A stretch of DNA of 64,000 bases, taken from the NCBI GenBank assembly GCA_963664115.2, contig CAXWPJ010000005.1, positions 1 to 64,000 on the forward strand. Direction: 5' to 3'. Below the pieces are notes generated by a model that was not told the origin of the DNA, searched no databases, and saw nothing but the letters and a program-made list of their open reading frames with translations. The DNA is from Terriglobia bacterium. GTDB taxonomy: Bacteria; Acidobacteriota; Terriglobia; 20CM-2-55-15. The stretch's first letter is position 1; each line of letters opens with the position of its first letter. A program made the position numbers and the translations under genes. Of the stretch, positions 26,589 through 63,881 are shown piece by piece.

Positions 26589-26855
26589 TTTTTCGAACCC
26601 CCATGACGAAAGAACTTGACCGCCGCAGTCCTTCGACCTTCTAATAATCCTTAGCATCAGGAGTGGTTCGGTACTTACCGAACCCGGCAACCGGTACGGA
26701 GAGACACGGTGCCTTTGACGCCGAAAGCGTCAGATGTGCGAGACGACTCGAAACAACTCTCCAACACCAACCGTCGCCCTGCCCTGTGCAGGGCGTTCGT
26801 ATTTTCGCCCTCCTGGTGCGTGTCGAATCATTTCGATCTAGCCCAGGAGGTAACG

Positions 26856-37648: not shown

Positions 37649-39651
37649 GTAGGGTCGAGCACTGGTGCGGTAACCCGTAGGCCACTCCTTGGCTGTATCC
37701 GGCGTTTCCGCCTTCGTGCCCGTTTAGGAGTGGCCGTAGCTCCGTTTCCAGCGCCCGCCACTTCGCACGCAGCGTGCGGATTTCCCGCACTACGCGCTCC
37801 TGCACACTTCGCCTCAAGGGTTATGAGACCTGTCGAGTGAAAGCGACTATGCAGAATGGCAGGAATAGGACACACGGTAGGCATTGAACAACCCCACCGT
37901 CCCATACAGCCAAGCTGCACTCCACCGCTTCCATCCGAAACCGCGACGCTGACTGGCTCGGGCCCGGTGGGACCGGATCTTCTTTTCAACCCAGGCGCGA
38001 ATGAACTGGAAGCATCCGCTGGAGTGACCAAACGCAAAGTAACGCACCCACCCGCGCAGGATCGGATTGATCTGCTCGATCACCCGATGGAGCGGCTGGG
38101 ACTGCGTACGCTTGAATATCTGATTGAGTCGACGGAGCAACGCGGTCCGCTTTGCTAACTTCGGCGTCCGCAATGCCATCCATCGTCCCCGGCGACTACG
38201 AACGCGCCGGAACTCAAAGCCGAGAAATCCAAAGCTCTCTCCCCGCGTCAGGTCCACCCGTCGGCTCTTCTCCGCATTCACTTCCACCTGAATCTTCGCC
38301 AACTCTTCCCGAAGTCGCTTCTCGACAACCTGCCGAAGCCACTGATACCGCGGATGCGCATCCACCAGGACCACCATGTCATCGGCATACCTGGCGTACT
38401 CGATACACTCCCGCTGCCGGTTCCGGGTAACTTGCTTAGCCCGCTCTAACATCCGATCGACATCATTGAGATAGATGTTACTGAGCAGCGGCGAAATCAC
38501 CCCACCTTGCGGCACACCCTGCTTCCCTGACGCCTTCAGCATCCATTTCAGGAGTCCAAGCACCTCCGGATCGCGGACTCTCTCGGCGACTTTCGCTAAA
38601 ACGATGGGGTGTTTCACCGTGTCGAAGTAGCGTCGCAGATCGAGATCGATCACGTCGGTCTTACCCTCAACGATGGCTCTGGAAACGCGCCCGATGGCAG
38701 CGTGTGCGGTCTTCTTCGGTCGATAGCCGAAGGATCCGGGTTGAAAGTCTGCTTCAAAGATTGGTTCCAGGATCAGCTTCAATGCACCCTGAACCACCCG
38801 GTCCCGGATCGATGGGATCGAAAGCATCCGTTGCTTGCCCCCCTCCTTGGGTATCCCCACCTTCCGGAGCCGTCCGGGTCGATATCTACGTTCGATCAGC
38901 TCCTCTCGAAGCTGGTCGAGAAACCCTTCCACGCCTGCGGCCTCAACGGCGTCAAACGTTACCCCATCGATTCCCGGGGCACCGTCGTTGGCCTTTGCCA
39001 ACCGGTACGCTTCCTGAAGCGTTTCTCGCTTTACCACGTGGATATACAACCCCCAAAAGCGCCAGGCCGGTTCGGCCTTCGCCTTGACGTATAGTCGTCG
39101 CCTCAGGTCTTGCAGACTAATGGGCGCATTTGTCATTTCACCCCTGCCTCCCGTCTTGGTTTCGACCTCATGTACAGCAGGGCCCCTTGGCTCCACGGGC
39201 GTTACTCCGCTTCATCGCTACTACGGACCCGGCCGCCACCGTCTCGTCTGCTCCCGACTTTCCGGTTGTGCCGGTTATACGATCGCTCCTGCTCCACCGA
39301 TTTCTCGATGGGACGAGGACGGTTTCTCCAGTTGCTCGGCATGTCCTTGTCACCGTGCTGCCCCTAATCACCCCGCCGGAGTGACAAGCCGCTTCGGTCA
39401 GATTGCGACATATCATGCTGCCTTCGCCCGTCCCAAGAAGGCTCGGCCTCCGGATCTACTCATTTCGAGGCCACCTCTAGGTTCACTTGCGTTGCGGCCC
39501 GGTGACTCACTCACCATCCTTTCTGATGGCTTTGTCGATCGGCTTCATCCGCTTCGTTTCCTCCACGGATGCGACCCAAGTTACAGAGTCTCTGACTCTT
39601 ACTCTGGTGGGGCTCTATCCCACTGAACATGCCAGCCTTAGCTGGACGCAC
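37649..39651 (-). mobile_element. Group II intron (about 2.0 kb)
   Basis: 5' GTGCG, 3' CTCGACCCTAC; domain V-like GAGCGCGTAGTGCGGGAAATCCGCACGCTGCGTGC after the ORF. Confidence 0.9.
37847..39133 (-). CDS. ltrA: Group II intron reverse transcriptase/maturase, no endonuclease domain
   Basis: GAPGIDG, IPSIRDRVVQ, SFGYRP, PQGGVISPLLSNIYL, YADD, NPILRGWVRYF. Confidence 0.92.
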   Translation of the reverse strand, partial: TNAPISLQDLRRRLYVKAKAEPAWRFWGLYIHVVKRETLQEAYRLAKANDGAPGIDGVTFDAVEAAGVEGFLDQLREELIERRYRPGRLRKVGIPKEGGKQRMLSIPSIRDRVVQGALKLILEPIFEADFQPGSFGYRPKKTAHAAIGRVSRAIVEGKTDVIDLDLRRYFDTVKHPIVLAKVAERVRDPEVLGLLKWMLKASGKQGVPQGGVISPLLSNIYLNDVDRMLERAKQVTRNRQRECIEYARYADDMVVLVDAHPRYQWLRQVVEKRLREELAKIQVEVNAEKSRRVDLTRGESFGFLGFEFRRVRSRRGRWMALRTPKLAKRTALLRRLNQIFKRTQSQPLHRVIEQINPILRGWVRYFAFGHSSGCFQFIRAWVEKKIRSHRARASQRRGFGWKRWSAAWLYGTVGLFNAYRVSYSCHSA

Positions 39652-47850: not shown

Positions 47851-47878
47851 ATTCTCAACGTCCGAGAAGATGATTTAT
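47851..47878 (-). repeat. Recombination site, 3' part (split by IS110; 5' part at 49337-49346)
   Basis: Joining the flanks gives TCAAGTCCTG|ATAAATCATCTTCTCGGACGTTGAGAAT. Confidence 0.85.
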
Positions 47879-47993
47879 TGATGGTATGGACTCCTCTTTG
47901 ATGACTGAGTCGGCATCGAAGTGCCAAAGTCATTTTGAGCCTCGCAATAAAGCGGGCGAAACACGTGTACGTGTGAACAAAAAGGAGTCCGAG

Positions 47994-49028
47994 ATGAAGA
48001 ATAGAACGATAGCAGTGGATCTGGCAAAGAATGTTTTTCAAATTGGTGTTTCAGATCGCCCCGGGCATGTAGAGAAAACCTATCGTTTAAGTCGGGCAAA
48101 GTTTCTGGGGTTCTTTGCGAACCAGGAGCTGGCGACCGTGGTGATGGAAGCCTGCGGATCCGCCCATTACTGGGGTCGGAAGATCCGGGAACTGGGACAC
48201 ACGGTCGTTCTGATCTCGCCGCAGTATGTGACGCCCTACGTCAGGCGCAACAAGACCGACCGTACGGATGTGAAAGGATTGTTGGAAGCCTATCGTGACA
48301 GCGATATTCATCCAGTGCCGGTCAAAACCCTGGCCCAACAGCAACTGACCTCATTGCATCGAATCCGTTCGGCGTGGATGCGAACCCGAACCGCACGGAT
48401 CAATACGGTGCGGGGGTTGTTACGGGAGTTTGGCTACGTGATCCCGACCGGAGCGGATCATCTGGTGCCGGGGGTAATGGAGCTGATCGAAGATGCAGAT
48501 GTCGTCATCCCCAGTGTCGTTCGGGAGATGTTTCACCAGGTGTGTGGCGAGATCCGTGAATTGGAATCTCGCATGCGATCGGTGGAACAAGAGTTGAAGA
48601 CGCTGGCTCGGCAGATGCCTGAGGTCGCGCGTCTGACGTCGATTCCCGGCATCGGCCTGTTAACGGCAACGGCAATGGTGGGGTTTGTTGGAAACATCAA
48701 ACGATTCCGAACGTCCCGCCATTTTGCCAGTTATCTGGGACTCACACCCCGGGAACATTCCAGTGGCAACCAGCGACGCATGGGCCGGATCAGTAAGCAA
48801 GGCGATCGTTACCTCCGGATGCTGTTGGTTCATGGGGGCCGTTCCCTGTTGTGGAGTGCCCATCGAGAGGGCGCCACACCGACACCTCTCCAGCAATGGG
48901 GTCTCCAGAAACACGAGTTCCGCGGACACAACAAGGCAATCGTTGCACTGGCCAACAAGTTGGCGCGTCGCGTGTGGGCGGTTTGGAACCGTGACTGTGA
49001 CCATCAGGCCCGGTATCAGGCGGCCTGA
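47994..49028 (+). CDS. IS110-family DEDD transposase
   Basis: AVDLAKNVFQ, MEACG, KTDRTD, IPGIG, GLTPREHSSG, ALANKLAR. Confidence 0.93.
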   Translation: MKNRTIAVDLAKNVFQIGVSDRPGHVEKTYRLSRAKFLGFFANQELATVVMEACGSAHYWGRKIRELGHTVVLISPQYVTPYVRRNKTDRTDVKGLLEAYRDSDIHPVPVKTLAQQQLTSLHRIRSAWMRTRTARINTVRGLLREFGYVIPTGADHLVPGVMELIEDADVVIPSVVREMFHQVCGEIRELESRMRSVEQELKTLARQMPEVARLTSIPGIGLLTATAMVGFVGNIKRFRTSRHFASYLGLTPREHSSGNQRRMGRISKQGDRYLRMLLVHGGRSLLWSAHREGATPTPLQQWGLQKHEFRGHNKAIVALANKLARRVWAVWNRDCDHQARYQAA

Positions 49029-49049
49029 CCCGAAACAGTCGGAATATCT

Positions 49050-49240
49050 TTTCAGCGAGCTGCGATGAGGTTCGAGATGATGGCGTACCGGTCAGACCGG
49101 CGCGGGGCAACGCCGACAAGTCCTTTGGCCCTTAGAGGCCGTTATTTTATCGGTTGGCTCCCCGCGCGCAAATTTCCATCATGGCCTGGAACAATACAGT
49201 TCCACTTTTGAGGCCGAAGATACGGGTGCAGTCGACTAGC
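49050..49240 (+). ncRNA. Putative seekRNA / bridge RNA of the IS1111-type element
   Basis: Downstream non-coding region contains CAAGTCCT and TTTAT (match target flanks) and CCATCA and AGATA (match IS ends). Boundaries approximate. Confidence 0.55.
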
Positions 49241-49355
49241 TACTCACCTCGTAACTTCTAGTCAGTCCTGCTGAATGCATTTTGCCGAAGAAAGCTGACG
49301 GGAGAGCTGCGCCTACTTGACAGAGGAGTCCAGATACAGGACTTGACCTCGAAAA

Positions 49356-49412
49356 TCAGGGCACCGGCACCCGTTCCTTCAGTTCTTCAAACCAGTTCAG
49401 GACGATGTTGAT
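49356..49412 (-). repeat. Orphan kinase 3' tail (INIVLNWFEELKERVPVP*)
   Basis: Followed after 9 nt by the site. Confidence 0.88.
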
Positions 49413-49637
49413 TACTGAAGGTTCAGCTCAAGCAGCGTTCCGCTCTGGTAGAAGGATCCCACCACGCCCAAGCAAGACTGTCCTCCTATGCCAATAAAGA
49501 GAATCAACGGTCGTCTAGCCGCATGCGGAAACAACAGTTCAGCCCTCGTCGTGGCACCCGCCCCGCCAGGGCGATCTTGAAGGACTGCTGTTCCTCCTGT
49601 ATCCAGATCCGCCCGCTGGTGGGAGAAACATCAATTC

Positions 49638-51857: not shown

Positions 51858-51983
51858 TGGCAGGGTCTTGATCGCCACTTTACGCCCGAGCTTCGTGTCA
51901 CGAGCACGCCACACTTCTCCCATACCACCTTTGCCGAGGAGTGTGCCGATCTCGTAGTGGCCCAGTTTGGTGCCAGATTCCAT
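51858..51983 (-). pseudogene. Orphan kinase 5' stub ([12 protein letters not shown]...VAIKTLP)
   Basis: First 42 codons of the kinase family, then unrelated sequence. Confidence 0.85.
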
Positions 51984-52056
51984 CGTTATAGTGTGTCGCT
52001 GAAATACAGTGAAAAACTCTGCAAAGGATACTAAGGCAGGAAGTTAGGCGCTATTA

Positions 52057-52097
52057 AATTCTCAAGTCCTGAGAAACGACATTCTCGGACCTTGAGA
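52057..52097 (+). repeat. Recombination site flanking the recombinase (ACGACA spacer)
   Basis: AATTCTCAAGTCCTGAGAA-ACGACA-TTCTCGGACCTTGAGA. Confidence 0.85.
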
Positions 52098-52188
52098 CTT
52101 TGATTGGCAGCTCGACACAGCACGGCCGTATATAAGGCTCTCTAACTCTCTTAAGAATGTGTGGCTTCGCCTATTTTCCGGTGAATGG

Positions 52189-53139
52189 CTATGCGCCTTC
52201 CAGACCCAACCGATCATTTACTGCATGACGCAGTTTCTGTTTGCAGCCCAGGTAGCGTTCCGTCGTCAACACTGAGGAATGACCCAGCAGGAACTGAATC
52301 TGCTCAATCTCGCCCCCGGCCTGGTAGCACAACCGAGCGCAGGTCCGACGCAGATCGTGTGGGGCAAGTTGGCTGATCTCCGATCGCTTTGCAACTTGCT
52401 TGATAATTCGCCAGACGACTTTTCCAGACAGACCGTCACCCCAGACACCTCCATAACGGTTCACTCTGCGAAAAATTCTTCCAGCACTAATTCCGGCCGA
52501 CCGTGTCCAGTTGTCCAATGCAGCTTTGACCCAGTCCGGCATTGGCACGGTTCTAACGCGTCGACCTTTGCCGATAAGATCCGCAATGATCCAGTGGTCT
52601 TCCCGGACCTGCAAATTCTCGACTCGCAGATCTACCAACTCAGATCGTCTTAAACCACATCCGAGGAGTACGGCAACGATCGCGCGATCTCGAAGGCCCC
52701 GGAGGTCGTCAGACTTGAAGCCAGTTAATAAGGTCCGCCCTTGCTCGGCCGTGAGCCAGTTGCCTATGATTCGTCCCTTTGATTTTGCTCCCTTGACATG
52801 CTGGATTCCCGCTGCCAACTCGGGACTCAGGAGTCCGCAATCCGAAGCCTCATGCGCCAAACGGCGAACAGCAGCCAGGTGCACATTGATGGTCGAAGCG
52901 GCGAGGTTTCTTTCCTTCAGATAGGTTTTGTATCGTCGAACAACAGTCCGGTTGAAAGCAAGGCGGGGCTCTGAACAATACCATCGTATGAATTCGTCAA
53001 TTGCTCGTCGATATGATCTTTGTGAACTTTCTGACGCCAGTGAAGCCAAGACCGCGGCCCTGGATTGTTCAAGGTCTGGCAGCTTGAGGGTCGTCTTCAT
53101 CCGTGACTTTTTCCGCTTCTTATCCGTTTCTCTTTTCAT
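52189..53139 (-). CDS. Stand-alone tyrosine recombinase (Xer-like size, no arm-binding domain)
   Basis: GCGLRRSE, GKG, HDLRRT, LGH, TERY catalytic set; GGAGG RBS. Confidence 0.92.
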   Translation of the reverse strand: MKRETDKKRKKSRMKTTLKLPDLEQSRAAVLASLASESSQRSYRRAIDEFIRWYCSEPRLAFNRTVVRRYKTYLKERNLAASTINVHLAAVRRLAHEASDCGLLSPELAAGIQHVKGAKSKGRIIGNWLTAEQGRTLLTGFKSDDLRGLRDRAIVAVLLGCGLRRSELVDLRVENLQVREDHWIIADLIGKGRRVRTVPMPDWVKAALDNWTRSAGISAGRIFRRVNRYGGVWGDGLSGKVVWRIIKQVAKRSEISQLAPHDLRRTCARLCYQAGGEIEQIQFLLGHSSVLTTERYLGCKQKLRHAVNDRLGLEGA

Positions 53140-53229
53140 AGTCGTGCCTCCATTTCAAATTGAACAAGGGAGGCAGATTTTCTGGAAAACAAGGCAAAAC
53201 ACTGAAATAGAGGGCTTGTCACGCCGGCG

Positions 53230-53272
53230 ATTCTCAAGGTCCGAGAATGTCGTTTCTCAGGACTTGAGAATT
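53230..53272 (-). repeat. Recombination site flanking the recombinase (ACGACA spacer), inverted
   Basis: 53232-53272 is the exact reverse complement of 52057-52097. Confidence 0.85.
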
Positions 53273-53346
53273 TAATAGCGCCTAAGTTCCTGCCTTAGTA
53301 TCCTTTGCAGAGTTTTTCGCAGCTTTTTCAGCGACACACTTTAAAC

Positions 53347-53529
53347 ATGGAATCTGGCACCAAACTCGGTCATTACGAGATCTCAACGCTTTTAGGTAAG
53401 GGTGGAATGGGTGAAGTGTGGCGTGCTCGTGATACCAAGCTCGGGCGCGAAGTTGCGATCAAGACTCTTCCTGCAGAGTTTGCGAAGGATTCAGATCGAC
53501 TCGCCCGGTTTGAACGTGAAGCCAAGCTG
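53347..53529 (+). pseudogene. Orphan kinase 5' stub ([12 protein letters not shown]...FEREAKL)
   Basis: First 61 codons of the kinase family, then unrelated sequence. Confidence 0.85.

Positions 53530-63808: not shown

Positions 63809-63881
<73 letters not shown>

Follow-up and report, generated by a model that had tools for sequence, protein, structure and literature searches.

The RNA guidance of IS1111 insertion sequences is established, so an RNA-guided element of this kind is in itself no surprise. As described in PMC11187229 and PMC11208160, the seekRNA or bridge RNA elements ISEc11, ISKpn4, ISPst6 and ISPa11 have a DEDD transposase of ~340 amino acids, subterminal inverted repeats in a 7/3 arrangement, a long 3' non-coding region in which a complement of the target's top strand precedes a match to its bottom strand, a fixed orientation of insertion, and natural reprogramming among close relatives, all of which recur at the locus described here. 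Family members combine, in 330-350 amino acids, a RuvC-like DEDD domain and a Tnp domain with a catalytic serine. By the rule given in PMC11187229, the repeats are 11-13 bp long and lie 7 bp from the left and 3 bp from the right end. We analysed such an element in a 64,000-nucleotide stretch of bacterial DNA (the window), and conclude that its predicted bridge RNA very likely directs its recombinase to a single left-arm nucleotide of an Xer-like 14-6-14 site, of which the genome has about 190 copies.

The element occupies 47879-49336 on the plus strand, is intact, 1458 bp long and without target duplication; its boundaries were set by near-identical copies with the same ends and different flanks. 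The left subterminal inverted repeat (47887-47897, plus strand) is a perfect 11-bp match to the right one (49322-49332, plus strand), as read from the sequence, and a mismatch between 47886 and 49333, just outside them, accounts for the 7/3 spacing of the ends. A 344-amino-acid DEDD transposase/recombinase is encoded at 47994-49028 (plus strand), with 308 bp of non-coding DNA downstream of its gene; it scores 316.6 bits against NF033542 (cut-off 140), also matches PF01548 and PF02371, and has all of D9, E52, D89, D92 and S257. When the ends are joined in silico as a circle, the -35 box TTGACA of a predicted junction promoter (49317-49322, plus strand) lies 17 bp from TGGTAT (47882-47887). Single target, single orientation and absence of duplication are further family features of the element, and by every feature testable in sequence the element is a member of IS1111.

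Removing 47879-49336 restores CCTG followed by ATAAATCATC on the minus strand, as an earlier note made from the letters had claimed. The two parts of the interrupted site lie at 47855-47878 (minus strand; last four left-arm bases, the 6-bp spacer ATCATC and the 14-bp right arm) and at 49337-49346 (minus strand; the outer ten left-arm bases). A profile search of the genome gave 193 such sites, 187 of them intact, and none in reversed DNA. Their core is of the Xer-like 14-6-14 form with two spacer classes, and across 61 genomes the site was abundant only in this genus. The exact 35-letter site pattern found no stretch in a database of genome contigs from which the own and near genomes may be excluded. 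Elsewhere in the window, Rfam models mark a SAM-I/IV riboswitch (26649-26766, plus strand) and a tRNA (63809-63881, minus strand), and the DNA runs X13 and X15, which contain the stretch (0.75 and 0.61 of words), are labelled sponge metagenome.

Other copies in the genome sit at the same site, the outcome the earlier note's proposed check of flanks called for: eight of nine left ends adjoin a site arm (seven the left, one the right; the left flank of the copy on contig C3 is not a site), as do 12 of 14 right ends exactly (ten with a left-arm flank and two with a right-arm flank, the remainder being one with a single mismatch and one unrelated). TTTAT is the flank sequence in all seven insertions into the left arm for which the site flank is intact. 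ATAAA follows the CCTG/CCCG position in 37 of the 187 intact sites, and the insertions show a preference for this ATAAA variant. The 14-mer defined by the guides has 32 matches in the genome, all of them in intact, shortened or interrupted sites; the guides alone can therefore explain the specificity.

The predicted bridge RNA (49074-49237, plus strand) consists of a 5' segment, a small hairpin, a target loop and a donor loop. Target guide 1, CAAGTCCT(T) at 49117-49125 (plus strand), is complementary to positions +2 to +9 of the right flank and mismatched at +1. Target guide 2 (49146-49154, plus strand) reads TTTAT, the left flank's last five bases, followed by the core or handshake letters CGGT. 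The left donor guide TTCCAT (49174-49179, plus strand) is complementary at five of six bases to IS positions 3-8, and changes in it go with changes at positions 7 and 8 of the left end. The right donor guide (49218-49226, plus strand) reads AGATA, the last five bases of the IS, followed by CGGG, handshake letters that fit the right flank CAGG/CGGG. All four segments that the earlier note had picked out are present at the positions it gave, but the note overlooked the handshake letters. One of them, CCATCA (49176-49181), had been read as matching an IS end. In this element it agrees with the left end; among 58 distant relatives, however, its last two positions agree with the left end in 22 and 12 cases (shuffled 20.8 and 17.5) and with the RNA 5' segment in 42 and 46 of 51 (shuffled 35.1 and 36.6). 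Since these two letters track the 5' segment and not the IS end, we take TTCCAT as the donor guide. The 5' segment TGATGG (49078-49083, plus strand) is predicted to pair with 49176-49181 within the RNA, the helix being 99.1% paired with three pairs showing two-sided change, and CCATCA doubles as a helix arm. Durrant et al. mention multi-loop donor nucleotides in IS1111.

Across an alignment of 19 sequences, 98.7% of the cells assigned to this structure are paired and 13 pairs show two-sided change; pairing is far above that of slid controls, and the guides occupy variable loops. A model of the RNA (R1) found 81 matches in 90 other loci. The fold check proposed in the earlier note thus came out in its favour: the structure has two loops and covaries, and the matches lie in its variable internal loops. 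Folding the RNA region as a single sequence gave a structure no more stable than shuffles (z -1.09), in which parts of the guides pair with each other. When the non-coding region was shuffled 20,000 times with dinucleotides preserved, an 8-mer of the right flank arose 537 times, TTTAT 5,066 times and all four segments never; matches of five bases are therefore weak alone, and the case rests on covariation.

We examined covariation among close relatives found by searching 61 related genomes, with 40 further regions fetched. The 46 RNA regions parsed gave 18 guide classes, from which same-target classes were collapsed and those without the needed flank dropped. Guide 1 made 74.2 matches to its own right flank over ten target classes, compared with 43.3 when permuted (equalled in 0 of 200,000 permutations, an offset of 0 or 1 being allowed), and guide 2 made 32.75 matches to its own left flank over eight classes, compared with 13.1 (6 of 200,000), figures that overstate the effect because the relatives are kin. 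The same columns were then scored in a distant set: 62 of the matches to R1 had both ends, and four were dropped: a close relative, a duplicate, an element with its guide deleted and one with a doubtful end. In the 58 distant IS1111 elements that remained, with handshake columns set by hand in four, the guides made 212 matches against 77.6 and 367 against 235.6 (0 of 5,000 shuffles each), values likewise inflated by kinship. At each of three variable positions, all 58 have the same letter in the right donor guide and the right end, and the left donor guide tracks left-end positions 7 and 8 and not 1 and 2. The earlier note's idea of an RNA-programmed parasite of the site gains its main support from these correspondences between guides and the relatives' own flanks.

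Single-letter retuning of guide 2 is seen in L083 (TTTAA with GATTTAA) and in L111 and L113 (TTTCT with GATTTCT). A sister lineage at 75% identity (L121 class) has 11 loci in the related genome G002 and has left remnants in this genome. Its insertions lie in the right arm, at the mirror position and oppositely oriented, and its guide matches at 9/9. Trees addressing a single origin of the left-arm and right-arm lineages gave no decision (p-AU 0.27 and 0.40; one left out distant, partial and duplicate rows). A few loci fit poorly: L139 and L142 score 2 and 3 of 9 for guide 1 in our register, L089 scores 2/5 for guide 2, and L082 has a left-arm guide, yet its right flank is the right arm. Of the remnants, the guide on C10 matches at 7/9, and the one on C12 has guide 2 CCCAA and has lost its left flank. 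Among the related genomes covered, guides directed at the site occurred in no genus but the one with abundant sites. A relative in G007 with guide CACATGTCC occupies the same arm position of an apparently diverged 14-6-14 site at three loci (L085, L119, L130), and non-site sequences at others.

The first bases of the exchange set the close clade apart. Among the 26 close copies with both ends, the left end has T where the target has C or G, and starts with TG where the flank has CG, CA or GG, in every case. The left end's first base matches the target in 53 of 58 distant relatives and in none of the 26 close copies. In the distant set, the letter that follows each right guide is also the left end's first base in 56 of 58 and the right flank's first base in 53. 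As judged from these ends and flanks, distant IS1111 relatives have a shared core and the close clade has none, and the core dinucleotide common to donor and target that belongs to the IS621 model is absent from it. With no core shared between donor and target, the product would be fixed by whichever strand is exchanged first. Junctions never show the partner's base, a pattern that fits fixation of the product by one strand.

A route of insertion can be proposed on this basis. By analogy with IS621, ISEc11 and CazIS110, the element's ends would join in a circle, and the junction promoter (TTGACA-17-TGGTAT) would then make the RNA. The target loop would open the site through 8 + 5 pairs while the donor loop holds the joined ends, and one strand would be exchanged first. 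By our count, with wobble allowed, the CGGT/CGGG handshake pairs would rise from five before exchange to seven after it, favouring insertion. The top strands of IS621 are cut beside the core and then exchanged (PMC11208158), a handshake rule is given for bridge recombinases (PMC13626964), and integration of CazIS110 is top-strand-dominant (10.1101/2025.10.25.684509). Because insertion separates ten of the 14 arm bases from the rest, the site hit is predicted to stop working. The benefit to the element would likely be a large stock of landing places outside genes, and transport along with the module to which it becomes fused. Contigs of eight sequencing runs showed no circle joint among the joints listed. 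Joints that skip 47879-49336 occur in runs X2, X4, X6 and X17, with sides of 20-26 letters that may come from other site copies, and RNA-library contigs, which show neither ends nor strand, span the RNA region (49038-49236 in X16).

The element is one of six types that split the site, three of them RNA-programmed IS. The earlier note had reported two elements converging on it; the convergence is real, but wider than the note saw. A group II intron (37649-39651, minus strand) splits a sibling site between CCTGA and GAAATC, one base further on than the IS, in agreement with the distance of 1 nt given in that note. On the 44-base site, the element inserts after base 15, intron 1 after base 16, a third IS110/IS1111-type element after base 20 and the sister IS after base 29. 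The third element (1541 bp; G000:C2:753733-755275, minus strand, plus seven more copies) has a transposase only 24% identical and lies in the spacer with a duplicated TC core; 8/8 left and 7/7 right ends are at the site, and it carries guide-like ACAAGATG and TTAAA matching both flanks. A group II intron-like element of ~670 bp without room for an ORF (G000:C12:17035-16365, 20172-19488 and 564490-563816, minus strand) follows base 29 in 3/3 copies and so shares its insertion point with the IS lineage of the right arm. An IS30-like DDE element, so labelled from reading its ORF, lies in the spacer (G000:C12:547170-548420 and others), and its ends adjoin a site arm in 20 of 21 cases by eye and in 12 of 21 under a strict automatic flank test. 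An internally deleted miniature of it also lies in the spacer (C2:88940-89020, C2:330005-330070). At G000:C1:92880-95220 and in five identical copies, an element combines a tyrosine recombinase with an IS91-like transposase (again a label from ORF reading), and four or five of the six start 30-45 bases outside a site arm; the six-copy recombinase belongs to this element and was set aside as a candidate.

That the IS is RNA-guided leaves room for the repeat itself being passive, a relic or REP-like sequence on which parasites converge through its abundance and non-coding nature. We consider this unlikely, given how the sites are arranged. Of 89 pairs of adjacent class I sites, 87 are direct repeats, and all 35 pairs made up of a class I and a class II neighbour are inverted. 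A candidate cognate tyrosine recombinase in the window (52189-53139, minus strand; 316 amino acids, with R-K-H-R-H-Y motifs, scoring below all NCBIfam cut-offs) lies between two inverted class II sites (52057-52100 and 53229-53272). The 55 loci of its relatives are all titled Acidobacteriota or members of it, and 33 of them have sites of the same 14-6-14 geometry with two spacer classes and a different sequence (110 matches against 2 in reversed DNA, using a profile seeded by eye from nine candidates). What a passive repeat would explain better is that two site-rich genomes, G002 (60 sites) and G003 (25 sites), yielded no close homologue of the candidate recombinase, and that the sites of this genome go unscored by the profile made at the loci of the recombinase relatives. 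In the reverse search, this genome's profile found no sites at the 55 loci. On balance the repeat is probably an active core site of a tyrosine recombinase, for which the 316-amino-acid protein is a candidate. It appears distinct from a host dif. What we take to be a single canonical-looking dif-like sequence, found by a motif search, lies at C2:108138; the repeat's right arm is unlike it, and XerC/XerD-type arms like those of the host dif were not found in the repeat.

The surroundings of the sites are also ordered. A stub encoding a C-terminal peptide (…NWFEELKERVPVP; 49358-49420, minus strand), presumably of kinase type, precedes many class I sites; it lies upstream of 77 of the 193 sites, 70 of them with the spacer ATCATC. 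Class II sites adjoin a promoter and a kinase N-terminal stub (23 sites; in the window, 51870-52058 and 53273-53400). Stubs at the sites suggest, from their sequence, cassettes built inside a kinase gene shell.

Less probable still is an attC-like target, that is, a single-stranded hairpin used by an integron integrase and read by the IS as hairpin plus sequence; ISPpu10 reportedly reads a hairpin as well as sequence. The arms do pair best when shifted by one base, with one unpaired base per side, class I sites form direct arrays, and an integron integrase above cut-off is present in the genome (C9:714608-715549, within 714590-715714, minus strand), as in G001 and G002. Against this, compensatory change between the arms is no greater than in shuffles for 15 of 16 pairs; at the variable pair 17/28, 62 of 176 sites have complementary bases (shuffled 63.6), and the mean fold is only about -5.8 kcal/mol on either strand. 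No site scoring above 15.7 lies in the 120-kb region around the C9 integrase, and a simple attC pattern has no match near it. G003 has sites and no integron integrase match, and the two classes of spacer each keep their sequence, which is how core sites used as double strands behave. We dropped the hairpin model of the site, whose arms lack covariation. The parallel with attC drawn in the earlier note holds only as ecology: the site has Xer-like geometry and no compensatory pairing between its arms.

The idea that the transposase docks on recombinase bound at the site and that the RNA matches are incidental can draw on docking proposed for IS1202-family elements at dif, on the chance frequency of individual 5-mers, and on the IS30-like element, for which no guide RNA is expected and whose targeting of the site is therefore probably led by protein, but we judge it highly improbable for the IS1111 element because guides change with targets across near-identical transposases, unrelated targets included, and because dependence on the non-coding region was shown experimentally for IS1111 members (PMC11187229).

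With RNA guidance to a probable recombination site as the preferred reading, a broader and tentative picture follows, whose three parts we hold jointly at slightly less than an even chance. Acidobacteriota would have a gene-cassette system, so far undescribed, in which a dedicated Xer-like recombinase works on this repeat as its site; three RNA-guided IS lineages, each programmed separately, would have been drawn to that site (to the two arms and to the spacer), as would two group II introns and an IS30-like element; and the clade of 47879-49336 would be a natural bridge recombinase needing no core shared by donor and target. The literature search, outside which lay most subscription journals and supplements, returned no IS110/IS1111 element at dif-like sites and no such cassette system in Acidobacteriota. 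A pile-up of six parasites is independent evidence of an old, safe and mobile address. Transposases 62-100% identical, with about ten targets and single-letter retunings, form a natural reprogramming series that maps IS1111 guide registers and handshake letters without experiments. A clade without a common first core base makes the need for core homology in bridge recombinases directly testable, and likewise one-strand fixation of the product, which bears on use as editing tools.

Set beside known systems, the mechanism is known and the kind of target is new. IS621 likewise has four guide segments in two loops, with neighbours of the right guides that fit the partner DNA after exchange (PMC11208158, PMC13626964); the present element differs in having its RNA at the 3' end, in reading DNA in the opposite orientation, in lacking a shared CT-type core, and in a left donor guide that overlaps a helix with the RNA 5' segment. 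The published IS1111 seekRNA or bridge RNA elements go to attC, to REP or to linear gene targets, whereas the target here is a 14-6-14 Xer-like site. Site hunting guided by RNA, so far a matter of attC and REP, thereby comes to include an Xer-like cassette site. The IS1111-attC group and the group IIC-attC introns share with this locus the convergence of RNA-guided IS and introns on a multicopy site between cargo genes (PMC11187229); here, however, the site is shorter than attC, lacks hairpin covariation and does not occur near the genome's integron integrase, and the element is not a member of that group, its target not being an integron attC. The nearest precedent is the IS1202-family DDE elements at pdif (PMC10132070). 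There, and in Acinetobacter dif modules, Xer-like sites are hunted, sites bound modules and neighbours follow orientation rules, as they do here; IS1202, however, uses DDE transposases and inserts 5 bp outside the site with duplication, whereas the element described here inserts within the arm and is RNA-guided.
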